A DNA stretch of 64,000 nucleotides from Coraliomargarita sp. (GCA_965216325.1 OZ244160.1:2752001-2816000), one strand, 5' to 3'; positions 15,821 to 32,031 are shown, counted from the stretch's first letter. Notes: generated by a model from the letters alone, not told the origin. Numbers and translations are program-made.

Positions 15821-17296
<1,476 letters not shown>

Positions 17297-17343
17297 GTTA
17301 AAATTTTTTATGCGAGTTATCTTCTTCGTGTAAAGTTGTTGGG

Positions 17344-17378
17344 ACCGCGCTCTGCGTTTACGTGGGGCGCGGTTTTTT
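17344..17378 (+). terminator. Rho-independent terminator after the transporter
   Basis: ACCGCGCTCTGCG-TTTA-CGTGGGGCGCGGT followed by TTTTT. Confidence 0.7.
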
Positions 17379-17523
17379 GTGTGGAAATGAAAGTGGCTGG
17401 AGGCACCACCCCGTCTCGCATTGCGCCTTCGACGGGCTCAGGGCTGGCGAGCCACCCCTCCTCGTCAAGATGACATGGGAGGAGTTGCCAGCGGTGAGTA
17501 ATCACTAAGCTAGCACTCCAGCC

Positions 17524-18678
17524 ATGAAGAATACGAAATCACTCACTCCCACATCAGATAAACAGACTGAAGCGAAAGCGGATGTCCTCAAGCTTGGAAT
17601 CGACGTGCACAAGCGGCAATACGTTGTCGTGGCTCAGTTTGATAATCAGTCTCCGAAGACTCCACAGCGGTTTAGTCCTGAGGCATTTTTGGTTTGGATC
17701 AGCAAGCAGCGTGCCTACGCACAGCGTATTGTGACATGCTACGAAGCGGGCTGTTTCGGTTACGTGTTGCATCGGAGGTTGGAATCGATGGGCATCGAGA
17801 ACTTGGTCGTGCGTCCGCGTAACTGGGATGAGTATGGCTCGAAGGTGAAGACCGATGCCCGTGATGCGACCGAGCTTTGCAGCCATCTTGATCGTTATCT
17901 GGCGGGCAATGAGCGTGCTTTAAGTGTGGTTCGAGTTCCGAGCGAAGAACAGGAGCGTTCACGTAGTTTGAGCCGACAGCGCGACACCTTATCCAAAGAG
18001 CTCAAGCGCTTGCAGAACGTAGGAACCAGCAATGCCCGCTATTACGGTTATGAACTGAAAACAACTTGGTGGAAGCAGAACAACTTCAAGGAGTTGCTGC
18101 GTGAGTTGCCTGAGTATCTACTGGAGATCTTGCGCCCATTTCAGGCGATCTTAGCGAGCATCGATAAACAGTTCCGTGAAGTCACCGCACGCGAAGAGCG
18201 CAGAGCAAACCGCAAACTACCCGTTGGTCTGGGAGCACTCACAGCCTCGATTCTGGACAATGAGTTTCGTGACTACAGTCGCTTCAAAAACCGTGGCCAA
18301 GTCGCGAGCTATACGGGGCTGTGCCCGAGTGAATCTTCCAGTGGCGGCTCGCGCAAACAGGGTAGTATTAATAAACATGGCAATCCTCGTGTACGCCATA
18401 CTCTGATCGAGGCGATTTGGCGCTTTCTTCAGCACCAACCCGATTACGATCCGATCAAAGACTGGAGGAAGCGTATGTGCAATGAGCCCTTTAGTGCAGC
18501 TAAGAAAAAGAAAATGACTGTAGCTATCGCACGTCGATTTGCCGTGGACTGGTGGCGAATCAATACAGGGCAAATAGAGCCTGAAGCAGTCGGCTTGAAG
18601 GTGGACTATCCGAGCGCCTATGCAACGCGTGCTTTGCGTGAAGGCCGGATCGTCAAAATCCATGCGAAAGGAGCTTAA
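17524..18678 (+). CDS. IS110-family DEDD recombinase/transposase
   Basis: GIDVH, YEAG, KTDARDA (DEDD) and YTGLCPSESSSGG (catalytic Ser region), GSINKHGN. Confidence 0.95.
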   Translation: MKNTKSLTPTSDKQTEAKADVLKLGIDVHKRQYVVVAQFDNQSPKTPQRFSPEAFLVWISKQRAYAQRIVTCYEAGCFGYVLHRRLESMGIENLVVRPRNWDEYGSKVKTDARDATELCSHLDRYLAGNERALSVVRVPSEEQERSRSLSRQRDTLSKELKRLQNVGTSNARYYGYELKTTWWKQNNFKELLRELPEYLLEILRPFQAILASIDKQFREVTAREERRANRKLPVGLGALTASILDNEFRDYSRFKNRGQVASYTGLCPSESSSGGSRKQGSINKHGNPRVRHTLIEAIWRFLQHQPDYDPIKDWRKRMCNEPFSAAKKKKMTVAIARRFAVDWWRINTGQIEPEAVGLKVDYPSAYATRALREGRIVKIHAKGA

Positions 18679-18699
18679 CAACTGATTTTTATGTAATTT

Positions 18700-18880
18700 G
18701 GAACGTTGGCTTGCGCGGCTCCCCTCCTGGTTCTTTGAAGAACCGATACCAAGATTGCGCGGCCTTTGTTCCTCTTGCCGATTGAATAGATCAACTTGCA
18801 CTGCTGAGAACAGGCACGTGCGGATAGCAGGTTATGCCCGGCAGTTTGCCGAATGCATCAACAGAGGAAACGTTTCAAAT
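18700..18880 (+). ncRNA. Putative bridge/seek RNA of IS element 1 (boundaries approximate)
   Basis: CTCCCCTCCT (18719-18728) is the reverse complement of the target AGGAGGGGAG; CAAG (18750-18753) matches the left flank; ATAGCAG (18824-18830) matches the IS end. Confidence 0.8.
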
Positions 18881-19078
18881 GAATGATCTTAAAATGGGGG
18901 CTCATTGCCGCCCCCAAGCCCCCGCTAGGGGAACAGAATCGAAAGTAGATATATCCATGCATTAACAAAATTACGAAACCGCTTGACGATATCTCCCATA
19001 GCAGGAGGGGAGTTTTGGGCTCTGCGTTTACGTGGGGGTGTCCTTGCGCTGCATTGAGTTGTCTGGCTTTGCGGGCCT

Positions 19079-19155
19079 GTGCGGAGCCGGAGGCTCCTGC
19101 GCTACCTCTTGGTTGGGGGGGGGGGCGGGTGGCAATGGCGGAGCATTGCCCTCCA
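19079..19155. repeat. REP cluster (GTAG-type and TGGAG-type) with a G11 run
   Basis: 19079-19107 is identical to 14401-14429; 19131-19155 is related to 5110-5135. Confidence 0.7.
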
Positions 19156-19204
19156 TTTCTAATTTGAAGTTTTCCTCCTGTTGCATCGTTGGGATTTTTG
19201 GTTC

Positions 19205-20953
19205 ATGAGTTCGTCTATGCATATTCAAAATCGGTTTTCAGTGCGTTATGGCCAAGCCTCAGAGGCGGGTGTCAAAGAGCGTAATGAGGACTGTTTGGGA
19301 ATTACGATTCCGGAGGGTGATATGCTCGGCACGAAGGGCATCGTGGTGGTTTTGGCCGATGGGGTCTCGGCTGCGGAGGCTGGTGGCGAGGCTGCGGAGA
19401 TGTGCGTGCGCAGTTTTATTAATGACTACTATAGCACGCCAGAAACCTGGCAGGTGAAGACTGCCGGGCACCGTGTGTTGGTGGCGATTAATCGCTGGCT
19501 CTTCAGTAAGGGGCAGGCCTTTTCGGAGGCGCATAAGGGCTATGTCTGTGCGATGAGTGCGATGGTGCTCAAGTCGCGCTCGGCGCATATTTTTCACGTA
19601 GGTGATGCGCGGATTTATCGTTTGCGCGATGGGCAGTTGGAGCAGTTGACGGATGATCACCGCACCTGGGTGTCGGAAAAGACCAGCTATTTGGCGCGCG
19701 CGATGGGCTTGGGCACGAGTCTGGATGTGGACTATCGCAAGGTGCCGATTCAGCCGGGGGATCATTTGTTGCTCTGCACGGATGGGGTGCATGAGCATGT
19801 GCCGGAGAAGGAGCTGCGGCGCTTTGTGGATTTTGCCGCGGAGGATTTGGATGGCGCGTGTGCGAAGATTGTGGCGCAGGCTTTGGCTGAAGGCAGCACG
19901 GATAATGTGAGTTGTCAGCTCTTGGCGGTCGATTCGCTGGCGGACGTAAAGGCGAATCAGGTATATGAGGAGCTGGGGCGTTTGCCGTTTCCGCCGCCTT
20001 TGGAGGTCGGTATGGTCTTGGATGGCTATGCGGTGGAGCGTGTGCTGGATGAGAGTGCTCGTTCGCAGCTGTATCTGGTGAGGGACGTGGAGAGTGGTGA
20101 GCGCGCGGTGATGAAGACTCCGGCGGAGCGCTTCAGTGATGATGCGGCCTACATTGAGCGCTTTCTGATGGAGGAATGGGTCGGGCGGCGCATTTCAAAT
20201 TCACGCTTGGTGAAGGTGGTGGAGAAGCGCCGTGTGCCACAGTTTTTGTTCTATTTGATGGAGCATGTCGAGGGGCGCACCTTAGCGAAGTGGATCGAGG
20301 AGAATCCGCAGCCGGAGATGGGTGCGGTGATTCATTTGATCGAGCAGGTGATTGGTGGGGTGCGTGCTCTGCATCGCAAGGAGACGCTGCATCAGGATTT
20401 GAAGCCGGATAATATTATCCTCGATTGCAATGAGCAGGTGAAAATTATTGATTACGGTTCGGCTTATGTGGCGGGGATCAATGAGGCGGAGGTTCCCTTC
20501 GAGCGCCGGGTGGATTTGGGCACGCGTTGCTATTCGGCGCCCGAGTATGTGCTCAATCGCCGACCGACGACGCGCTCGGATTTGTTTTCGATTGGTGTGA
20601 TTGCCTATCAGTTGTTTACGGGCAGTAAGGGGCATCCCTATGGTGAGGCTTGGACGCGTGCGCAGACGGTGGGGGACTTTTCGAAGCTCAAGTATGTGTC
20701 GGCACTGCAGCACAACCCCATGGTGCCGGGCTGGATCGACGGGGCTTTGCGCAAGGCGGTCAGCGTGTCGCCTGAGGGGCGCTATCCGGTGCTGTCGGAG
20801 TTTTTGGCGGATCTGCAGGCGCCGAATCCGGAGTTTTTGAGTGTGGAAGATGGGCCGCTGATTCGTCGCAACCCGCTGCTGTTTTGGCGCGGGCTTGTGG
20901 TCGTACAGGCGGTCATCATTCTGATTTTAGCGATCCTGGTCGGCGCAGATTGA
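19205..20953 (+). CDS. Bifunctional PP2C phosphatase / Ser-Thr kinase
   Basis: NED, ADGVS, HVGDAR, LCTDGV, GSTDN (PP2C); [24 protein letters not shown] (kinase); C-terminal TM. Start is 19205 or 19217. Confidence 0.92.
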
Positions 20954-21084
20954 GCTGAGGCAGTTGTGTAAGTGTTTTTGAATCAGGTGCCTTTGCGGAC
21001 TTTGTGGGACGCTGCTTGTCCATGAGCGAAATCGATGGATTCGATTAAAACACGGATTTGCATTAATTTGGACATCTGCGCGGA

Positions 21085-21101
21085 TTGGCATGACATGGGC
21101 T
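21085..21101 (+). promoter_or_regulatory. Putative sigma54 -24/-12 promoter
   Basis: TTGGCATG-ACAT-GGGCT (GG-N10-GC), about 30 nt before the nirA ATG. Confidence 0.55.
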
Positions 21102-21130
21102 GAAGTTATGGCCAATTGCAGGCAGATGTT

Positions 21131-22873
21131 ATGAGCACCGCTTTTTCTTCAGATCAAAAACAATACCTAGAGGGTTTCTTCGCCGGAGTGAACCAGCGCG
21201 GCGGCATGCCCTTTCTCGGGCAGAACGCGTCCGGGCAGTTTACCAATAGCCCCGCGGAAGCCGTCGAGGAGACGGTTTATGGCACGCCGATTGAGGACCT
21301 CTGCAAGGAGGAGCTGATCAAACACGAGCAGAACGGGCTGGATGTGTGGGACACGATGGTGGCCAATGCGGAGCAGGATGTATTTCCCGCCGCGGACGAT
21401 ATGTTCCGCTATAAGTTTCACGGCTTGTTTCATGTAAAGCCGGCACAGGATTCGTTTATGCTACGTTGCCGTATCGCCGGTGGTGCGTTGAAGTCGCATC
21501 AGCTCGTCGGTTTGGCTGAGATCGCAGACGATTGGGGGGGCGGCTACGCCGATCTGACCACTCGAAATAATTTTCAGGTCCGTGAGATTCTGCCGCGTAA
21601 CACCGTGAGTGTGTTGACGAAGTTGGTCGATCTTGGGCTGACTGCGCGTGGTTCGGGTGCCGACAATCTGCGCAATATTACCGCGAGCCCAACAAGTGGC
21701 TTCGACCCGCAGGAAGTTTTGGATGTGATGCCGTATGCCAAGGCGATGCACCACTACATCATGCACAATCGCGACCTCTACGGTCTGCCGCGTAAGTTTA
21801 ACATCGCCTTCGACAGCGGCGGTCGTGTCTCATCCTGTGCGGATACCAATGACATCGGTTTCTTTGCTGTGCGTGTGGGCGAAGGGCAGGGCGTTGAGCC
21901 GGGAATCTATTTCCGTGTGCAGCTCTGTGGGATTACCGGCCACAAGCAGTTTGCGTCGGATTGCGGTTTGTTGATCAAGCCGGATCAGGCGGTGGCTGTG
22001 GCTGCGGCAATGGTGCGTGTCTTTATCGAGAATGGTGACCGCACCAACCGCAAGAAGGCGCGTCTGAAGTATTTGGTCGATGACTGGGGCGTTGAAAAGT
22101 ATCTTGAAGAGACGCAGAAGAAGCTCGCGTTTGATCTGGGGCGTCTGCCGCTGGAGGCGTGCGAGCTGGCTACTGCGCCCGTGAAGCATGGCCACGTGGG
22201 GGTCTACAATGAGAAGACCGAAGGTTTGAATTACATTGGCGTGGTGATTCCGGTGGGGCGTATGCTGCCGGATCAAATGAAGGCGATCGCGAAGCTTGCG
22301 GATCGATACGGTCGCGGTGAAGTGCGCCTGACCGCTTGGCAGAATCTGTTGATCCCGGGGATCCAGGATGCCGACCTTGAGGCGGTGAAGGCGGCGATTC
22401 TCGAAATTGGGTTTAACTATAGCTCGACCACGATATCAGGTGGTTTGATTGCGTGCACGGGTAATGTTGGTTGCAAGTTCGCATCTGCCGATACCAAGGG
22501 ACATGCTCTGAAGCTTGCGAAGTATCTTGAGGAAGTCATCGAGTTGGATCAGCCGATCAACATTCACGTGACCGGATGCCATCACTCCTGTGCCCAGCAT
22601 TACATTGGTGATATTGGCCTGATCTCCTGCAAGGTGAAGATCGACGGTGAAAGCCACGAAGGCTACAGCGTGGTGCTCGGTGGCGGTTGTGATGATGCGC
22701 AGGCGATCGCCCACGAAGTCTTTCCCGGCACCGCCTTTGAGGATCTGAAGCCACTGATTCTGAATGTGCTCCGCACCTATCAGGAGAAGCGGGAAAATCA
22801 GGAAACCTTCTGGCAGTTTACCCGACGTCATACTGCGGACGAATTGAAAGCGCTCTTCGCGGTTGCTGCTTAA
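21131..22873 (+). CDS. nirA: Siroheme [4Fe-4S] nitrite reductase, NirA type
   Basis: [37 protein letters not shown] and GCHHSC ligands; nitrate cluster context. Confidence 0.9.
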
Positions 22874-22900
22874 CCAGAGACTTCAGTCGATGAACCGATC

Positions 22901-22988
22901 TCTTAGTCATAATCCTAATCTTAATCGTAATCTCCTACGTATGCTTGGCACTGAGAGATTAAGACTAGGATAACGATTACGATTAAGA
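22901..22988. repeat. Palindrome built from TAATCN hexamer repeats (second copy)
   Basis: TCTTAG TCATAA TCCTAA TCTTAA TCGTAA TCTC ... GAGA TTAAGA CTAGGA TAACGA TTACGA TTAAGA. Confidence 0.75.
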
Positions 22989-23000
22989 CTTTTTGGATAT

Positions 23001-24587
<1,587 letters not shown>

Positions 24588-24760
24588 CGATAACGAATCG
24601 TCAGTATGTGCTTATGAGAGATTTAAACTCAGACAATAGATTCACCATACACAACGAAAGTGCCTTCGCACTTCCGCTACACGTAAAGGCTGTAGAGGAA
24701 CTGCGAAGCAGTTTCTTCTGCGGTGGGCAGAGCTAACAGTGCAATATTCAGTTTACGATC

Positions 24761-26968
24761 ATGTCTCCAATTGAATTCATCAAAGGCCAATTACGTTTAC
24801 GCGCCCGTGATGGTGTTTTGACCGAGCGTCTTGTTCAGGAACCTGCAGCCTATGGCTTAGGTCGCGTGCCTTCGTCAACCAAGCCGGATGCAACGGTGGA
24901 CAGTGTCTGCGGTTTTTGCGCGACCGGCTGCTCGTTGAAGGTGCACCTGAATGATGGGCAGGCGGTGAATCTCTCGGCCAATACCAAGTACCCGGTGAAT
25001 CTGGGCATGGCTTGCCCGAAGGGCTGGGAGGCTTTGACACCCTTGACTGCTTCGGATCGCGCGACCACGCCGATGCTCAAAGGTGCGGACGGTCAGTTAC
25101 ACCCAGTGAGCTGGGATGAAGCGATGGATGCCTTCGTTGGTAAGTTTAAGGACATCCAATCGCTGAATGGTCCCGAGTCGGTAGCGTTTATTAGCACTGG
25201 CCAGATTGTGGCTGAAGAGATGGCCTTCCTTGGTTCGCTGGCGAAATTCGGCATGGGTGTCGTGCATGGTGATGGCAATACCCGTCAATGCATGGCAACT
25301 GCGGTGGTTTCCTATAAGCAGTCCTTTGGCTACGATGCGCCACCGTATACCTATCAGGATTTTGAAGAGTCGGATGTGTTGTTCTTTGTCGGGGCTAACC
25401 CATGTATCGCACACCCGATTATGTGGCAGCGCGTGATGCGCAATCAGCGTAACCCGGAGATCATTGTGGTCGATCCGCGTAAGACGGAAACGGCGATGGC
25501 GGCGACGCGTCACTTGCCAATTAAGCCGAAATCCGACCTTGTTTTGTTCTATGGATTGGCCGCGCGCGTGGTGGAACTTGGTTTGATTGATCAGGCTTTC
25601 ATTGATGCCCACACCAACGAGTTTGAAGCCTTCAAGTTGTTTCTGCGTGACTACGATTTGGAGCGTGCTGCGGAAGAGAGCGGCATCGATCTGAAGGAGC
25701 TCGACGAGATCGCGCACCTGATCGGCTCGGGCAAGCGTGTGTCCTTCTGGTGGACGATGGGCGTCAACCAGAGTTACGAAGGCGTGCGTCTGGCGCAGTC
25801 GATGATCAACCTTGCCTTGATGACCGGTAATATCGGTAAGCCGGGCACGGGGGCGAATTCGATTACGGGGCAGTGCAATGCGATGGGCTCGCGCTTGTTT
25901 AGTAATACGACTGGTCTGCTAGGCGGACGTGATTTTACTTCGGCGGCCGATCGTCACGAAGTGGCCGAGTTGCTGGATATTCCGGTCGAGGTGATTCCAG
26001 ATCAGAACAGTCTTTCATACTATGAGATCATCGACGCGATTGATCGCGGCGAGATTAAGGGGCTCTGGATGATCGCGACCAACACCGCGCACTCCTGGAT
26101 CAATCAGAAGCGTTTCCGCAAGATTCGTGAGAAGTTGGATTTCCTCGTGGTGCAGGACATGTATCACACCACAGACTCCGCGCAAATCGCCGACCTTGTG
26201 CTACCAGCGGCAGGCTGGGGCGAGAAGGACGGTGTCTTCATTAATTCGGAGCGTCGTATTGGCCGCACGCGCAAGGTGCGCAAGGCACCGGGGGAAGCGC
26301 TTTCCGACTTCAATATCTTCCGCCTGATCGCGCACCATTGGGGCTGCGCCGATCTATTCAAGCAGTGGGATACTCCTGAGAATGTGTTCAAGTTGCTCAC
26401 TCGCGTGAGCAAGGGCATGCCATGCGATATCTCAGGTATTGAAGGCTATGACCACTTGGATCGTGAAGGAGGCATTCAATGGCCCTATCCGGATACGGTG
26501 AATGGACCTGTCGAGAAGCAGCGCCGCCTGTTTGAGGACGGTAAGTTCTTCCATGCCGATGGGCGTGCCAAGTTCCTCTTCGAAGCACCGCGCCCGATGC
26601 CGGAGCCGCCGAACGAGGACTATCCCTACATTCTTTTGACCGGCCGTGGCACTTCTTCGCAGTGGCACACACAGACCCGCACCGGCAAGTCTGATGTGTT
26701 GCGCAAACTGTATCCAGAAAACCCTTACGTAGAGATCAATCCGCAGGACGCCGAGCGCTTGGAAATTCGTCCGAACCACAAGGTGCGCGTGCGCTCCCGT
26801 CGTGGGGAAGTCGAAGTGACTGCCGTGCTACTCTCCAGTGTGCAACCGGGCCAACTGTTTATGTCGATGCACTACGATGTAACGAACCACTTAACTGCGG
26901 ACGCCTTTGATCCATATTCCAAGCAGCCTTCGTTCAAGGCCTGCGCAGTTACAATTGAGGCCGTCTAG
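24761..26968 (+). CDS. nasA: Molybdopterin nitrate reductase catalytic subunit (NasA/NarB-like, cytoplasmic)
   Basis: CGFCATGC...[36 protein letters not shown]...QWHTQTRTG; no Tat signal. Confidence 0.9.
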
Positions 26969-27009
26969 GCCGCTGTTTTCGAACTCAACTTTTCAAAGAA
27001 AGGACTCAC

Positions 27010-28746
27010 ATGTCAGCACCATACATTCCAGATAACGCTCCGTTTTCGGAGGATCAACGTTCATGGCTCAATGGCTTTTTGGCCGGGCTCTATTCAAACG
27101 CACCGGGCGAGGGCGGCGCAGCTACTGCGGTCGCGGCCACTCCGGTAACTGTGTTGTTTGGCTCTCAAACCGGCACTTCCGAGGCCCTGGCGAAGAAGGC
27201 GGGCAAGCAATTGAAGGCGGCGAACTGTGATCCGAAGATCGTCGATATGGGAGACTTCTCTGTCGAGGATATGAGGGACTGTCAAAACGTGTTGATCGTC
27301 ACCAGCACCTACGGTGAGGGTGAGCCACCTGACAATGCCGCGAGCTTGCATGGTGCCTTGATGGCTGAAGGAGCGCCTAGCATGGCGGGTGTGAACTACT
27401 CTGTGCTTGGTCTGGGTGATTCGAACTATCCGGACTTCTGTCAGTGCAGTAAGGAATTTGATGCGCGCTTGGAAGCGCTTGGCGCAAGCCGTGTCGCACC
27501 GATGGTCGAGTGCGATGGTGATCCGGATGATTTGTTCCCTAGCTGGTTGGAGTCGGTTCAATCGGTTCTTGGTGAAGCTGGTGCGGCGCCTGCGGTCCTT
27601 GAAGACGATGCCGACGAAGAAGCAGGATCTGCTTTTGATAAGAAGAATCCATTTCCAGCAAAGCTGTTGAAGACTGAAAACCTCAATAAGGAGGGTTCTT
27701 CCAAGGCGACGCACCATGTGGAAATTTCGCTTGATGGCTCCGGCTTGGATTATGAGGTCGGTGATGCCCTGGGTGTGTATCCAGAAAACAAGGTTGCGTC
27801 GATTTTTGAAATCACCGGTGCGGCTGGGCTACTGCCGAGTGAAGAAGTGACCTTGCCCGATGGTAGCACGGTGAACCTGATGGAGGCGCTGCGTTTCCAC
27901 TATGACATTTGCGGTTTGCCAGAAGCATTCCTGAAGGCCTGCGCACGCCTGACCAAGAATGAAGAGTTGCAGGCAATCGTCGCGGATGAGACCCAGATCA
28001 AAGCATACAGCAATGGCCGCGGAGTTGTGGATCCGATTGTTGACTTTGAGGTGAAATTTCCGACTGCGGAGTATTTTGTCGCGAGCTTGAAGCCGCTGCA
28101 GCCACGACTTTACTCCATCTCATCCAGTCCGAAGGCACATCCGGGGGAGGTGCATTTGACGGTGGGGAAGGTGAGCTATGAGACGCATGGTCGCCAGCGT
28201 GGGGGTGTGTGCTCTACCTTCCTTGCTGAGCATACGACCGTGTCTCCGGTGAAGGTTTACTTGCACGCTAACAAGGCGTTCCGTTTGACCGAGAACAATG
28301 ATGCGCCGGCTATCATGATTGGTCCGGGCACGGGTATCGCGCCGTTCCGCGCCTTCCTCGAAGAGCGTGAAGCGCGTGGTGCGCAGGGCAAGAACTGGTT
28401 GCTGTTTGGTGACCAGCACATGGCGACGGATTTTCTTTACGAAGAACAGATCACTGCGTGGATGAAGAGCGGTTTGCTGACCCGCTTCGATACCGCGTTC
28501 TCGCGTGACCAGGCGGAGAAGATCTATGTGCAGGATCGTATTCGTGAGCATGCTGACGAGTTCTACGCATGGCTGGAAGAGGGGGGGCACATCTACATCT
28601 GTGGTGATGCCTCGCGCATGGCTAAGGATGTGGACAAGGCGATCCACAAGGCGGTCGAACTCGCCGGTGGAAAGTCCGAAGAGGATGCGAAGGCCTACGT
28701 GGAAGCGCTGAAGAAGGAAAAACGCTACCTGCGCGACGTCTACTAA
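27010..28746 (+). CDS. CysJ-like diflavin (FMN/FAD) NADPH reductase
   Basis: FGSQTGT, TSTYGEGEPP, LGLGDS, RLYSISSS, GPGTGIAPFR, CGDASRMAKDV, C-terminal RDVY. Confidence 0.92.
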   Translation: MSAPYIPDNAPFSEDQRSWLNGFLAGLYSNAPGEGGAATAVAATPVTVLFGSQTGTSEALAKKAGKQLKAANCDPKIVDMGDFSVEDMRDCQNVLIVTSTYGEGEPPDNAASLHGALMAEGAPSMAGVNYSVLGLGDSNYPDFCQCSKEFDARLEALGASRVAPMVECDGDPDDLFPSWLESVQSVLGEAGAAPAVLEDDADEEAGSAFDKKNPFPAKLLKTENLNKEGSSKATHHVEISLDGSGLDYEVGDALGVYPENKVASIFEITGAAGLLPSEEVTLPDGSTVNLMEALRFHYDICGLPEAFLKACARLTKNEELQAIVADETQIKAYSNGRGVVDPIVDFEVKFPTAEYFVASLKPLQPRLYSISSSPKAHPGEVHLTVGKVSYETHGRQRGGVCSTFLAEHTTVSPVKVYLHANKAFRLTENNDAPAIMIGPGTGIAPFRAFLEEREARGAQGKNWLLFGDQHMATDFLYEEQITAWMKSGLLTRFDTAFSRDQAEKIYVQDRIREHADEFYAWLEEGGHIYICGDASRMAKDVDKAIHKAVELAGGKSEEDAKAYVEALKKEKRYLRDVY

Positions 28747-28778
28747 GTGTAGCACAGCTGCATTTAGTGAATTGTTGT

Positions 28779-28963
28779 TGGAGAGACACCGTCCTCGGTG
28801 TCCAGTTAGGCTTAGTTCTGGACGACGGGGACGCCGTCCCTCCATTTTTCTGATATCGAATAACTAGAGCGAGTTGTCTCGACTGGATTCTGTGCGGACG
28901 GCTGTCTCGGCCCTTCGATAGACTTAGGGCGGCGAGCATGTCAAATGCGCGAGACAGCCCTAC
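28779..28963. repeat. REP cluster (TGGAG doublet 28779-28844; GTAG-type palindrome 28900-28963)
   Basis: TGGAGAGACACCGTCCTCGGTGTCC...GGACGACGGGGACGCCGTCCCTCCA; GGCTGTCTCG...CGAGACAGCCCTAC. Confidence 0.7.
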
Positions 28964-29017
28964 CTTTGACGAGAATCCTGCTTGCCTTTTGTTGCGTGGA
29001 CTGGACTGTGCGGCGCT

Positions 29018-29314
29018 ATGAAGAAAACATTTCAGTTCGCGCATCCGAAGATTAAGCCTGAGCGCATGGTGGAAGCCATCAAGGGTGAGGTGACCAAGTA
29101 TCTCAGACGGGAGCGGAAGAAGACTTTGCCGGATGGCATCGATTTCTGGGATTTTGACTGCAAGTTCGGTCCGGACGCTCAATCGGCGGTCGAGGTGCAT
29201 GTTGCCGAGTTGCCGAAGCGTATTGATGCGGCATCGGCGGAAGGCTTGGCTGAGTGCTACATCGAGATTTTGGCGAAGCCAGCCAAGCGCACAAAGAAGC
29301 CAGCGGAAGTGTAG
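29018..29314 (+). CDS. Conserved hypothetical protein (DUF6172-like)
   Basis: MKKTF...KYLRRERKKTLPDGIDFWDFDCKFG...YIEILAKP. Confidence 0.8.
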   Translation: MKKTFQFAHPKIKPERMVEAIKGEVTKYLRRERKKTLPDGIDFWDFDCKFGPDAQSAVEVHVAELPKRIDAASAEGLAECYIEILAKPAKRTKKPAEV

Positions 29315-29430
29315 AAGTGGCCTTGTCCACAGGGGCGATGCGTCGCGAGTCGAGCGAGCATTGTCAGGCGATTATTTGTAGATGACATGGGCGTTTATCA
29401 GGAGCACGGAAGTGCTATGATGATAAACTT

Positions 29431-30519
29431 ATGCAAAACCCCACATCATCTACACGGACAACTAAGAACGCACTGGGCACAGTAATCAAGCTTGGCATTG
29501 ACGTGCATGCGAGCACCTACGTGGTGGTCATGAAGATCGATAGCAGCGCCCCTTCACGCGCGAAGCGCATGAAGCCTGATATCTTCCTTCGATGGATTAA
29601 GCAGCTGAGCACTCAGTGCGAGCAGTTGCAAAGTTGCTACGAGGCCGGTCCTTTTGGTTACAGCCTGCACCGCAAGCTCAAGGCGATGGGCGTGAACAAC
29701 CACGTAATCCGCCCGATCAACTGGGACACTCATGGTAAGAAGGTAAAGACCGACGCGCGTGATGCGTTGCAAATGGTCTTGAGTCTGGACGGCTATCTGC
29801 GGGGCAATGACCGCAGCTTCAGTGTCGTGCGTGTGCCCAGCGAGCAAGAAGAGCGTCACCGCAGCCTAACCCGGCAGCGTGAAAGCTTCGTCAAAGAACG
29901 TGGCCGTGCGGCCAAGCGTGGTAAGAGTCTGGGACTGTATTACGATCAACCCTTACCCAGCGGCTGGTGGAAGCCGCGCAAATGGATGCAGCTACTCGAA
30001 CAGCTCGACGATTTTTTGATCAGCCTGCTGGAGCCACTGCGGTTAAACTGCCTGCACTTTAGCGAGCTAATCAGCAACATCGAAGAACGTATCGAAGCGC
30101 TCGAGCCGGAACGGGTGCTGCCTAAAGGCATGGGGGTGGTCCTCTATGAACAGATCGAACGTGAGGTCTGCAACTGGAAGCGATTCAACAACCGCAAGGC
30201 GGTCAGTTCCTTTACCGGACTGTGCCCAAGCGAAGACACTAGTGCAAATCGGCGTTTCCAGGGCTCGATCAACAAACACGGCAGTCCCCGCCTGCGGCAT
30301 ATGCTACAAGAGTGCGCCTGGTTATTGATCCGGTGGAATCCCGGCTACAGTGGGGTGCGTAAATGGCAGGCCAAGCTCAGCGACGAGACCACCAGTAAGG
30401 CGACCCGCAAGAAAATTGCCGTGGCCATCGCCCGGCAGTTCGCCGTGGACTGGTGGCGCATACGCACTGGCCAATGCAGTCTCGAAGACTTCGGACTGAT
30501 AAGCAGACAAAACCCATAA
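29431..30519 (+). CDS. IS110-family DEDD recombinase/transposase
   Basis: GIDVH, YEAG, KTDARDA, FTGLCPSEDTS, GSINKHGS; a divergent homolog of 17524-18678. Confidence 0.95.
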   Translation: MQNPTSSTRTTKNALGTVIKLGIDVHASTYVVVMKIDSSAPSRAKRMKPDIFLRWIKQLSTQCEQLQSCYEAGPFGYSLHRKLKAMGVNNHVIRPINWDTHGKKVKTDARDALQMVLSLDGYLRGNDRSFSVVRVPSEQEERHRSLTRQRESFVKERGRAAKRGKSLGLYYDQPLPSGWWKPRKWMQLLEQLDDFLISLLEPLRLNCLHFSELISNIEERIEALEPERVLPKGMGVVLYEQIEREVCNWKRFNNRKAVSSFTGLCPSEDTSANRRFQGSINKHGSPRLRHMLQECAWLLIRWNPGYSGVRKWQAKLSDETTSKATRKKIAVAIARQFAVDWWRIRTGQCSLEDFGLISRQNP

Positions 30520-30579
30520 GTCCGAACCAACGCTAAAGGCCTTCACCCTCTGATTTTAACGTTCTTTTGCAGTTTTCCT

Positions 30580-30770
30580 TTGTGCGGAGTGAGTCTGACC
30601 AAGCCCCTGTTGCCAACACAACGATTTTGTAGAATAGGCCACTTCGCCACCAAGCTTTTGAATGACCCAATGGATAGGTCATAGTGTGCTCTTCTGAGAA
30701 ACACTCAGAAACACGGATAGCAGGTTATCCCGGATCATCGAAACTCCGAGGCCATGCGCGGTGGACGCTC
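30580..30770 (+). ncRNA. Putative bridge/seek RNA of IS element 2 (boundaries approximate)
   Basis: AAGCCCCT (30601-30608) is the reverse complement of the target AGGGGCTT; TTTGTAG (30626-30632) equals the left flank; CGGATAGCAGGTTAT (30714-30728) is shared with element 1. Confidence 0.82.
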
Positions 30771-30855
30771 AAAGACGATTGCAATCAAAACAAACCACTT
30801 ATCTTATGTAAAAACACTCACACGCTTCTACACTCTTGACAGAAACGAACATAGC

Positions 30856-30930
30856 AGGGGCTTCGCTTGCGGAGCCCGCTTCTGGAAGGAGGATTCTCTG
30901 TGTGACGGGCTTCGCAAGCAAAGCTCCTGC
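30856..30930. repeat. GTAG-type REPIN interrupted by IS element 2
   Basis: (GT)AGGGGCTTCGCTTGCGGAGCCCG and inverted partner CGGGCTTCGCAAGCAAAGCTCCTGC. Confidence 0.78.
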
Positions 30931-30990
30931 GTTTTCTAGTCAAATTAGGGCTCGTATCCCGTGTCCTGATTGGCGTATCCCATTGGGCAC

Positions 30991-32031
30991 ATGAAATTTT
31001 CCCAAGTCGCAATTGAATCCATCGCTTATGCGTTGCCGGACGAGGTGTGGACCTCGGCGGACGTGGAGGCGAAATTGGCGTCTGTTTACGAGCGTCTTCG
31101 TTTGCCCGAAGGTCGTCTGGAGTTGATGACCGGCATCAAGGAACGTCGCTTCTGGCCTGCGGGCACCCCAGCGTCGGTGGCATCGGCTAAGGCAGGCGAG
31201 GCAGTGCTGGCGAAATCGTCCTTCAAGCGCGAGCAGATGGACTTGTTGATTCATTCTGCGGTCTGCCGTGACCGCTTAGAGCCGGCGACGGCTTCATATG
31301 TGCACGGCTTGCTTGGCCTTTCGGGAGGCACGCAGATCTTTGATGTGTCGAATGCCTGCCTTGGTTTTTTGAATGCGATGGTGATTGCGGCGAGCATGAT
31401 CGAGAGCGGTCAAATCGAGCGCGCGCTGATTTGCTCAGGCGAGAATGGTCGTCCATTAGTGGAGAATACGCTGCAGCAATTGCAGAATCCGGAGCTGACC
31501 CGTAAGACGATCAAGCCGTATTTCGCCAATCTGACCATTGGTGGTGGTGCCGTTGCGGCGGTCTTGTGTCGCAAGGACTTGGCTCCTGTATCCAGCCCGC
31601 AACTACATGCGGCAGTGGTGGAGACGGATACCTCGCACAATGAGTTGTGCCAAGGGGACTCCGCTGGGGATGCCTTGGAGATGTTGACCGACTCGGAAGA
31701 ATTGCTGGTCGCGGGTATTGGTGTGGCCACCCGCGCATGGGCCCGCTTCACCGAAGCGACTGGTTGGACCGCTGAAACGCCGGACCGTGTGATTACACAT
31801 CAGGTTGGTAAGGCGCACACGCGTGAGTTGTTCAATGCATTGAATTTAGATCTGGAAAAAGACTACGCGACTTTCGAGACGCTGGGGAATGTGGGCTCGG
31901 TTTCCTGCCCGATTACCTTGGCACGTGCGATCGAAGATGGTGCCTATGGGCCAGGACAGAAGGCTGCCTTGCTGGGCATCGGCAGTGGTTTGAGTAGTTT
32001 GATGCTTGCCGTGGAGTGGCCTGAGTCATGA
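30991..32031 (+). CDS. oleA: OleA-like thiolase-fold acyl condensing enzyme (KAS III family)
   Basis: RLELMTGIKERRFW, VCRDRLEPATA, FDVSNACLGF, LTIGGGA, HQVG, LGNVG, GIGSGL. Confidence 0.8.
   Translation: MKFSQVAIESIAYALPDEVWTSADVEAKLASVYERLRLPEGRLELMTGIKERRFWPAGTPASVASAKAGEAVLAKSSFKREQMDLLIHSAVCRDRLEPATASYVHGLLGLSGGTQIFDVSNACLGFLNAMVIAASMIESGQIERALICSGENGRPLVENTLQQLQNPELTRKTIKPYFANLTIGGGAVAAVLCRKDLAPVSSPQLHAAVVETDTSHNELCQGDSAGDALEMLTDSEELLVAGIGVATRAWARFTEATGWTAETPDRVITHQVGKAHTRELFNALNLDLEKDYATFETLGNVGSVSCPITLARAIEDGAYGPGQKAALLGIGSGLSSLMLAVEWPES

Follow-up and report, generated by a model that had tools for sequence, protein, structure and literature searches.

Two IS1111-group insertion sequences of a Coraliomargarita genome carry predicted two-loop guide RNAs that match their own insertion sites

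Insertion sequences of the IS1111 group encode their guide RNA, the seekRNA, downstream of the recombinase gene, and the RNA segment matching the top strand of the target lies 5′ of the segment matching the bottom strand, the reverse of the order in IS110 (Siddiquee et al., 2024, PMC11187229). The same article, on portions of which we draw here as we do for the other papers cited, describes natural pairs of redirected relatives (ISEc11 and ISXne4, 72% identical; ISEc21 and ISMch6), a short seekRNA form of 70-100 nt that is enough for ISEc11, and a promoter at the circle junction of ISEc11 and ISEc21. Durrant et al. (2024, PMC11208160) defined left and right guides for target and donor, with the core included in each, predicted that 93% of IS1111 elements have a bridge RNA in their right end, and gave a range of 7-17 bp for IS1111 subterminal inverted repeats. 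Here, we analyzed two elements, el1 and el2, in a 64,000-nucleotide stretch of a Coraliomargarita sp. genome (GCA_965216325.1, OZ244160.1:2752001-2816000; hereafter the window), for which a first-pass annotation had proposed that the RNAs at their 3′ ends carry different guides, each matching its own insertion site. From their anatomy, their replication within the genome and the covariation of guides with targets, we consider it very likely that el1 and el2 are RNA-guided IS1111 elements. Positions are counted from the first letter of the window, and all features described lie on the + strand.

Element el1 occupies positions 17470-19004 (1535 bp, excluding the left AG and including the right one) and is single-copy in the genome; el2 occupies 29382-30857 (1476 bp) and has nine genome copies. 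In both, an AG precedes the element, which then runs ATGACATGGG...CATAGC and closes on a second AG; the right ends, read directly, are ...CATAGCAG, and the termini are identical between el1 and el2. The open reading frame (ORF) leaves 54 nt of non-coding DNA on its 5′ side and 326 nt on its 3′ side in el1, and 49 nt and 338 nt in el2, so the shared ends and the roughly 330 nt of non-coding DNA are as the first-pass annotation had described them. We also observed subterminal inverted repeats that start 5 nt inside each end: a 7 bp repeat in el1 (ATGGGAG at 17475-17481, with its partner CTCCCAT at 18993-18999) and an imperfect one in el2 (ATGnnCGTTTnT, 9/12). Subterminal inverted repeats and a downstream non-coding region are the anatomy described for the group (PMC11187229; PMC11208160), and we assign el1 and el2 to the IS1111 group of the IS110 family. 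They share with ISEc11, ISPa11, ISKpn4 and ISPst6 (PMC11187229), named elements that we compared by description rather than by sequence, the long downstream non-coding region, the subterminal inverted repeats and a DEDD recombinase with a PF02371 C-terminal domain.

The recombinases of el1 (17524-18678, 384 aa) and el2 (29431-30519, 362 aa) are 46% identical, and both ORFs are intact. The el1 protein combines a DEDD (RuvC-like) N-terminal domain with a Transposase_20 domain and carries the motif GLCPSESSSG, which fits the IS1111 motif GL-P----S(T)G; the corresponding motif of el2 is GLCPSEDTSA. Both proteins scored above the Pfam cut-offs for PF01548 (DEDD_Tnp_IS110) and PF02371 (Transposase_20), el2 with a PF01548 score of 29.2 against a cut-off of 29, and the NCBIfam model NF033542, "IS110 family RNA-guided transposase", matched el1 with 168.6 bits (E 2e-49; cut-off 140). 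Together with the long 3′ non-coding end and the subterminal repeats, these matches bear out the IS1111-like recombinase of the first-pass annotation. Residues D27, E74, D111, D114 and S273 (el1 numbering), which we take from the literature to be the catalytic ones, were invariant in 21/21 sequences of relatives and align with GIDV, CxEA, KTDxxDA and ESG of ISCro4, as the D, E, D, D and Ser positions do with IS621. When a profile of the 21 relatives was compared with 177,635 distinct PDB sequences, ISCro4 came first (9t56, E 4e-6) and IS621 second (8wt6, E 1.7e-4); the similarity to these two proteins is by profile only, with E values of 1e-4 to 1e-6, and concerns the C-terminal domain. Unlike the IS1111 elements described in the portions of PMC11187229 that we draw on, for which 330-350 aa is typical, el2 and el1 encode recombinases of 362-384 aa, belong to a Verrucomicrobiota host (by the record titles of their relatives), and have common termini and a common donor guide even though their recombinases are only 46% identical. 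In el2, furthermore, Ser-Ala replaces the Ser/Thr-Gly of those elements; an occasional Thr-Ala in the IS1111 serine motif is mentioned in the same source.

Behind each recombinase gene we predict an RNA with a target loop followed by a donor loop, of about 176 nt in el1 (18697-18872) and about 184 nt in el2 (30582-30765, from its fold and its homology to the alignment of the clade). The order within the target loop is the same in both elements: outer stem, guide A, short hairpin, GAT, guide B, outer stem. For el1, the 5′ arm of the outer stem at 18708-18718 pairs with the 3′ arm at 18755-18764, and between them lie guide A, the right-target guide CTCCCCTCCT (18719-18728), the hairpin GGTTC-TTTGAA-GAACC (18729-18744) and guide B, the left-target guide ACCAAG with the next A (18748-18754). 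For el2, where the stem and hairpin come from the single-sequence fold, the arms lie at 30584-30597 and 30635-30647, guide A, CCAAGCCCCT, at 30599-30608, the hairpin GTTG-CCAACA-CAAC at 30609-30622 and guide B, TTTGTAG, at 30626-30632. As in ISEc11, ISPa11, ISKpn4 and ISPst6, the segment for the top strand of the target is thus 5′, the segment for the bottom strand is 3′, and the two overlap at the insertion point.

We then compared the guides with the flanks of each element. Guide A of el1 is the exact reverse complement of AG plus the right flank GAGGGGAG (10/10), whereas ACCAAG (18748-18753) and the left flank GTCAAG have only CAAG in common, 4 nt including the 2-nt core. Guide A of el2 matches AGGGGCTTCG, that is AG plus GGGCTTCG, at 9/10 positions, 8 of them contiguous; AG plus GGGCTT, reverse-complemented, gives the part AAGCCCCT. 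At the copy in the window, guide B of el2 equals the left flank plus core over 7/7 positions. The guide matches of the first-pass annotation were therefore reproduced for el1, and those for el2 (9/10 on the right, 7 nt on the left) hold at the window copy, while the left match is shorter at the other eight copies (see below). When the 3′ ends were shuffled, a right-flank match as long arose in 4/2000 cases for el1 and 52/2000 for el2, and both guides together matched in 0/2000 and 2/2000 cases. Pairing the 3′ ends with the target of the other element gave right matches of 7 nt, versus 10 and 8 for the proper pairs, and left matches of 5 nt versus 7.

We next turned to the remainder of the host genome, one contig of 3.06 Mb. 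Both targets are repeats resembling repetitive extragenic palindromic (REP) sequences. The left flank of el1, TCGTCA plus the core AG (17462-17469), lies within the palindrome CCCCTCCTCGTCAAGGAGGGG, with the right flank GAGGGGAG at 19005-19012; this repeat family (example at 17455-17469 with 19005-19012) often sits inside a composite repeat including ...GCTCCTCCCCTGCGAAG. The left flank of el2, TTTGT plus AG, is at 29375-29381, and its right flank at 30858-30877 is the REP-like hairpin GGGCTTCGCTTGCGGAGCCC, an example of a family GGGCTT(T/C)GCTTGCG(A/G)AGCCC with 27 regular-expression matches, occupied sites included. All nine el2 copies have the right flank GGGCTT, mostly extending into the hairpin GGGCTTTGCTTGCGAAGCCC, and the left flank is GTAG in 8/9 and GAAG in 1/9, with variable sequence further left; the copies thus define one consensus site, xGTAG|GGGCTTYG, in a single orientation relative to the element. 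Over these nine copies guide B matches 7, 6, 6, 4, 4, 4, 4, 4 and 2 nt, the 7 nt at the window copy only, and position 9 of the right guide is mismatched at every copy.

Uninterrupted sites were abundant. We counted 34 of the el2 type, GTAGGGGCTT, and 18 of the el1 type, CAAGGAGGGGAG, of which 8 have the full palindrome CCCCTCCTCGTCAAGGAGGGGA; every one has a single AG, whereas occupied sites have an AG at both junctions, which agrees with the AG core of the first-pass annotation. The flanks are thus target rather than element, and insertion is without duplication beyond the AG that the element carries. We also considered whether the flanking GGGCTTTGC... or ...GTAG could be part of the element, and rejected this in view of the 34 empty sites and the variable sequence beyond. 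Neither el1 nor el2 sits at the abundant empty sites of the other. On this evidence, the two REP-like families of the genome may be explained as landing sites. An association of this kind is described for ISPpu9 of Pseudomonas putida (PMC12288879), which likewise has multiple copies in REP sequences and a small RNA gene downstream of its transposase, but in another host and other repeats.

Eight el2 copies are the same throughout their 1476 bp and the remaining copy has 1 base difference, so el2 looks recently active; el1, with its single copy, gives no such sign. The assembly agrees with the copy number: contig depth over 29380-30863 is about 3500 versus about 390 in the surroundings (DNA runs X3 and X5), contigs break at the ends of el2, and the loose ends show the flanks of other copies. 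For el1, contigs span each junction, and long contigs pass through the whole element in X3 and X5. In four DNA runs (X2-X5), we found no empty-site or circle-junction contig over 17000-31200, although contigs cannot show rare forms. This result and the single copy of el1 would fit elements that are inactive relics, with the match of guide and target a fossil of past activity, as would the degeneration of some relatives: L030 has a stop codon in its recombinase frame, and in L047 and L049 the RNA region breaks off within the target loop into unrelated DNA. However, the near-identity of the el2 copies argues for recent transposition, and both ORFs are intact with the invariant, presumably catalytic residues in place, and we regard the relic account as quite unlikely.

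To examine whether guides and targets vary together, we scanned one genome per species, found 260 stretches encoding relatives, and kept 77 loci, which with ten loci of the host genome make 87. The kept loci are at most 82% identical, and almost all belong to records whose titles name Verrucomicrobiota (Coraliomargaritaceae, Puniceicoccaceae, Opitutales and others), in keeping with the verrucomicrobial lineage assigned by the first-pass annotation. Their 3′ ends gave 43 distinct sequences that aligned well (MAFFT). To score guide A, we took a 15-nt window at its position and determined the longest stretch that it shares with the reverse-complemented core plus right flank; this longest-common-substring score was chosen because MAFFT shifts el2, L080, L083 and L084 by one column. 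The 60 insertions with at least 10 nt of flank reduced to 26 distinct guide windows, with one insertion for each. The summed match was 177, compared to a permuted mean of 123.5 (standard deviation [sd] 6.8), and 0/10,000 permutations reached it. For the 11 guides outside the common GACCCC type, the sum was 80 versus 41.9 (sd 5.2; 0/10,000), and the diagonal dominated the guide-by-target matrix. Examples of guide A and target pairs are CTCCTCCT with AGGAGGAG in L020, CTGACTCCT with AGGAGTCAG in L032, GCCAAACT with AGTTTGGC in L062, ACGCGGCCT with AGGCCGCGT in L080, and CACCCATCCT with AGGATGGGTG in L084. Guide B was tested on 56 insertions with 25 distinct guides, leaving aside L036, L084 and L085, whose left ends were not found; suffix matches summed to 104 versus a permuted 79.6 (sd 4.1), again with 0/10,000 permutations. 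Covariation across homologs, which the first-pass annotation had named as a check of its claim, was hence observed for both guides, and that the guides differ and track their targets is likewise seen at the nine el2 copies and the empty sites.

One relative captures such a change at a homologous site. L020, from a Coraliomargarita sp. metagenome-assembled genome (MAG) record and 70% identical to el1, sits in a homologous REP-like site whose left flank is CCACCCCTCCTCGTCAAG, as in el1, and whose right flank is GAGGAGGAG instead of GAGGGGAG; its guide A is changed to match, CTCCTCCT versus CTCCCCTCCT in el1.

These data bear on another explanation, in which the REP-like hairpins are recognized by the protein alone or by their DNA structure, and the complementarity of the 3′ end is incidental or a captured or mimicked REP. 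Both targets in the host genome are indeed palindromic REP-like repeats, and the palindrome makes the guide A of el1 equal to part of the left flank, the left arm, as well. However, L062, L080, L084 and L032 have non-palindromic, unrelated targets with matching guides at the same structural position, permuted assignments of guides to targets never reached the observed match for either guide, and the guides sit in internal loops of a covarying RNA structure. We therefore consider recognition by the protein alone or by DNA structure highly improbable.

In the genomes of relatives, AAAG|GGGTCA(G), a common target, is repeated next to insertions in short arrays, either in tandem or clustered, e.g. 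caaagggtcaaagggtcaaagggtcaaaggggtca, seen to the left of the elements in L050 (about 1840-1850) and L051 (about 1745-1860) and in the right flanks of L042 and L048. In L012, L017, L030, L033, L061 and L076, the right flank reads AGGGTCAG or AGGTCAG where the guide predicts AGGGGTCAG; the one or two G missing from these G-runs may reflect homopolymer assembly error, bulge tolerance or a shifted crossover. L035 lacks guide A and the hairpin.

For the RNA structure, we ran RNAalifold on 35 of the 43 distinct sequences, with the 3′ ends trimmed by a further 25 nt; L006, L042, L058, L064 and L082 were set aside as near-duplicates, L085 because part of it is duplicated internally, and L022 and L037 because they were misaligned. 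Five helices with 30 pairs make up the consensus, and 25 of these pairs show compensatory changes. Overall, 91.9% of cells were paired, compared to 39-49% when the 3′ partners were slid by 1-3 columns, and 0/500 shuffles reached any of five structure measures; as the structure was predicted on the alignment used for counting, these figures are biased somewhat in its favor. Compensatory changes were found in 8/9 pairs of helix 1 (the outer stem of the target loop) and 4/4 pairs of helix 2 (the short hairpin), and in 5/7 pairs each of helix 3 (the closing stem of the donor loop, 97.1% of cells paired) and helix 4 (its inner hairpin, 98.4%). One consensus pair is G-U in 23/35 sequences, which fits the + strand as the RNA strand; transcription from the minus strand was rejected, as frequent G-U pairs would turn into C-A.

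The consensus thus falls into two parts: a stem around an internal loop that holds guide A, the short hairpin and guide B, followed by a CTCCTCT/AGAGGAG-type stem around a loop with the invariant GGATAGCAGG as its 3′ strand. Bridge RNAs have this same plan of target loop and donor loop. The first-pass annotation had described the first part, which the single-sequence folds of el1 and el2 reproduce and the consensus of 35 contains, but it had missed the second loop. On this prediction, the roughly 330 nt behind each recombinase gene may be explained as a structured guide RNA. Similar to IS621 and ISCro4 (PMC11208160; 8wt6, 9t56), the RNA would have a target-binding loop and then a donor-binding loop, and in each loop one strand would read the bottom strand (left) and one the top strand (right), core included. 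It differs from theirs in its position, which is 3′ of the gene in the right end instead of the left. In addition, the guides of a loop follow each other in the opposite order, the core is AG where theirs is CT, and the right-target guide has 8-12 nt and the left 4-7 nt, where the right-target guide of IS621 pairs over 4 bp, extended to 7.

In the donor loop of el1, the closing stem has its 5′ arm, GTTCCTCT, at 18768-18775 and its 3′ arm, AGAGGAA(A)C, at 18863-18871. Within it lie a 5′ strand, ...ATAGATCAACTT (18776-18797), partly complementary to AG-ATGAC, then the inner hairpin (18798-18821) and the left-donor guide GGATAGCAGG (18822-18831), whose ATAGCAG repeats the right terminus. The left-donor guide of el2 is the same GGATAGCAGG (30715-30724), and its 5′ strand is GGATAGGTCATAGT (30672-30685), where GTCAT is complementary to left-end bases 1-5 (ATGAC) and would contact them. 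In 64/87 loci, ATAGCAG forms the right terminus and has a second copy within the 3′ end, at a distance of 115-229 nt; the other 23/87 are truncated, degenerate or variant. The internal 7-mer and the right terminus also change together, to ATATTAG in L059 and L074 and to ATAGGAG in L075. For the other end, we asked whether the alignment of 43 contains a right-donor guide that would pair cleanly with AG plus the left end, and observed partial matches only, with hints of covariation between the 5′ strand and the left-end types, which include TTAAC, ATAAC and ATACC; in L024, for example, GTCAAC of the 5′ strand matches G-TTGAC. We therefore treat the 5′ strand as a putative and weak right-donor guide.

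A further contact with the left end may come from the target loop. The base after the core in guide B (18754 in el1, 30633 in el2) equals left-end base 1 in 38/39 distinct RNAs (A/A 29, T/T 9, G/A 1), with at most two or three independent changes, which suggests that, once strands have been exchanged, the guide B strand also reads the first base of the incoming left end (a "handshake").

Two other views of how the ends are recognized can be considered. In the first, the functional seekRNA is the first loop alone, 70-100 nt long, the ends are recognized by the protein through the subterminal repeats, and the second loop serves processing, folding or regulation. For ISEc11, an 82-nt seekRNA that contains the target matches is sufficient for transposition, and what the long form does is left open there (PMC11187229), the donor-loop 5′ strand matches the left end poorly across the clade, and subterminal repeats stand 5 nt inside each end of both elements. 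This view has a low but appreciable probability in our estimate: the internal 7-mer covaries with the right terminus in L059, L074 and L075, the donor-loop stems, with 97-98% of cells paired and with compensatory changes, rank among the helices of strongest support, and both loops are predicted in IS1111 elements (PMC11208160). As the second view we tentatively propose, as an idea that is more likely wrong than right by some distance, that the RNA of the clade makes three strong contacts (through the left-donor guide, the long guide for the right target and the short guide for the left target with its 1-nt handshake), that the right donor end is captured mainly by the protein through the subterminal repeat, and that flank-dependent excision possibly keeps el1 and el2 orthogonal. 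If true, this would be a hybrid of RNA and protein donor recognition, distinct from IS621.

The right end also carries a box that faces outward, TTGACG in el1 (18983-18988) and TTGACA in el2 (30836-30841), both 16 nt before the right end and resembling a −35 hexamer. Among 38 distinct right ends of relatives, the TTGAC box is exactly 16 nt before the end in 23, and mostly within 1-3 nt of that position in the remainder. In a circle, the box would be followed after 17 bp by left-end bases 2-7 (TGACAT; TAACAT or TACCAT in relatives). TTGAC(A/G) is thus a possible −35 half of a circle-junction promoter, and its spacing to the left end in the clade fits the junction promoter of ISEc11 and ISEc21.

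Returning to the two-loop reading, we can outline how el1 and el2 may work, with RNA production, protein binding, the circle and its promoter, and the geometry of pairing inferred from IS621, ISEc11 and ISPa11. Each element encodes a DEDD/serine recombinase, and its 3′ end would give rise to a two-loop bridge RNA (seekRNA) about 180 nt long. The strands of the target loop would read the right flank as its reverse complement (8-10 nt) and the left flank in the same sense (4-7 nt), guide B probably reading the first base of the incoming left end too, while the donor loop would carry a copy of the right end of the element (ATAGCAG) and touch the left end weakly with its 5′ strand. Excision as a circle would make the right end, AG and the left end abut, and the junction would probably make a promoter of TTGAC(A/G), 17 bp and TGACAT. 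The complex of recombinase and RNA would then join the circle junction to a matching site at the AG core without target duplication. On this scheme, el1 is programmed for the REP-like palindrome CCCCTCCTCGTCA-AG-GAGGGG, and el2 for xGTAG-GGGCTTTGC, where a different REP-like hairpin has its base.

Several observations weigh against RNA guidance by these two loops. The longest guide A match is at least 8 nt in 11/26 guides, 6-7 nt in 9/26 and 5 nt or less in 6/26; these six include L028 and L024, essentially without a guide A match, and L037, an alignment failure scored as 0. Several guide A misses come down to one G in a G-run, from assembly error or real. Guide B is poor in information, its median match being 4 nt, 2 of them from the core, and that of el1 has 2 matching bases beyond the core. 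In the donor loop, L038 has ATAGCAG internally but ATAGAAG at its terminus, AGATCAACT of el1 is perfect for AGTTGATCT and not for AG-ATGACAT (6/9 match), and the core positions are mismatched in the 5′ strand of el2. Neither the whole 3′ ends (z = −2.08 for el1 and +0.86 for el2) nor the trimmed RNAs (z = −1.12 and −0.41) were more stable than shuffles, an Rfam 15 scan of 17000-31500 with E up to 1 returned no family, and a search of sequencing runs listed no RNA run containing the stretch. On the protein side, el2 carries Ser-Ala at the Ser/Thr-Gly of the family motif and scored 137.8 bits with NF033542 (E 4.7e-40), 2 bits below the cut-off, and a PDB search with the single el1 sequence gave no match with E up to 0.01.

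As to what is new, the first-pass annotation overstated it: the mirrored layout and a natural reprogramming pair are published rules (PMC11187229), and the kind of element, the reversed guide order and natural retargeting pairs have been known since 2024 from Siddiquee et al. and Durrant et al., in the portions drawn on here. Redirection between relatives, as we observed here, parallels ISEc11/ISXne4, and ISPa11 is reported to have more than 1000 unique insertions at a defined target (PMC11187229). Relative to these two articles, the additions are a verrucomicrobial clade with an AG core and a long right-target plus a short left-target guide, somewhat longer recombinases, the Ser-Ala variant of el2, and co-resident systems that share donor ends but not targets. 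The finding opens no new question. Its use lies in the data set, a clade of about 25 distinct guide sets with natural targets, a two-loop consensus and covarying donor-guide variants; such sets help establish how long the guides of IS1111-type recombinases are, how far mismatches are tolerated and where the handshake lies, these recombinases being less studied than IS621. To call the elements candidate programmable recombinases, as the first-pass annotation did, seems reasonable from the sequences, and the clade offers further orthologues to try as such. With the same donor ends and different target loops in one cell, el1 and el2 would be a natural test of orthogonality.

Two minor features were noted around the elements. 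The two assembly joints that connect 19155/19156 to 30856 have sides of 24 nt and resemble links made by the assembly graph across repeats. Separately, the genome contains just two copies of an 18-nt perfect direct repeat, CTCTGCGTTTACGTGGGG: copy 1 (17350-17367) lies 102 nt before the left end of el1, in a terminator-like hairpin followed by a T-run, and copy 2 (19020-19037) begins 15 nt past its right end, so that the pair brackets the REP-like unit together with el1.

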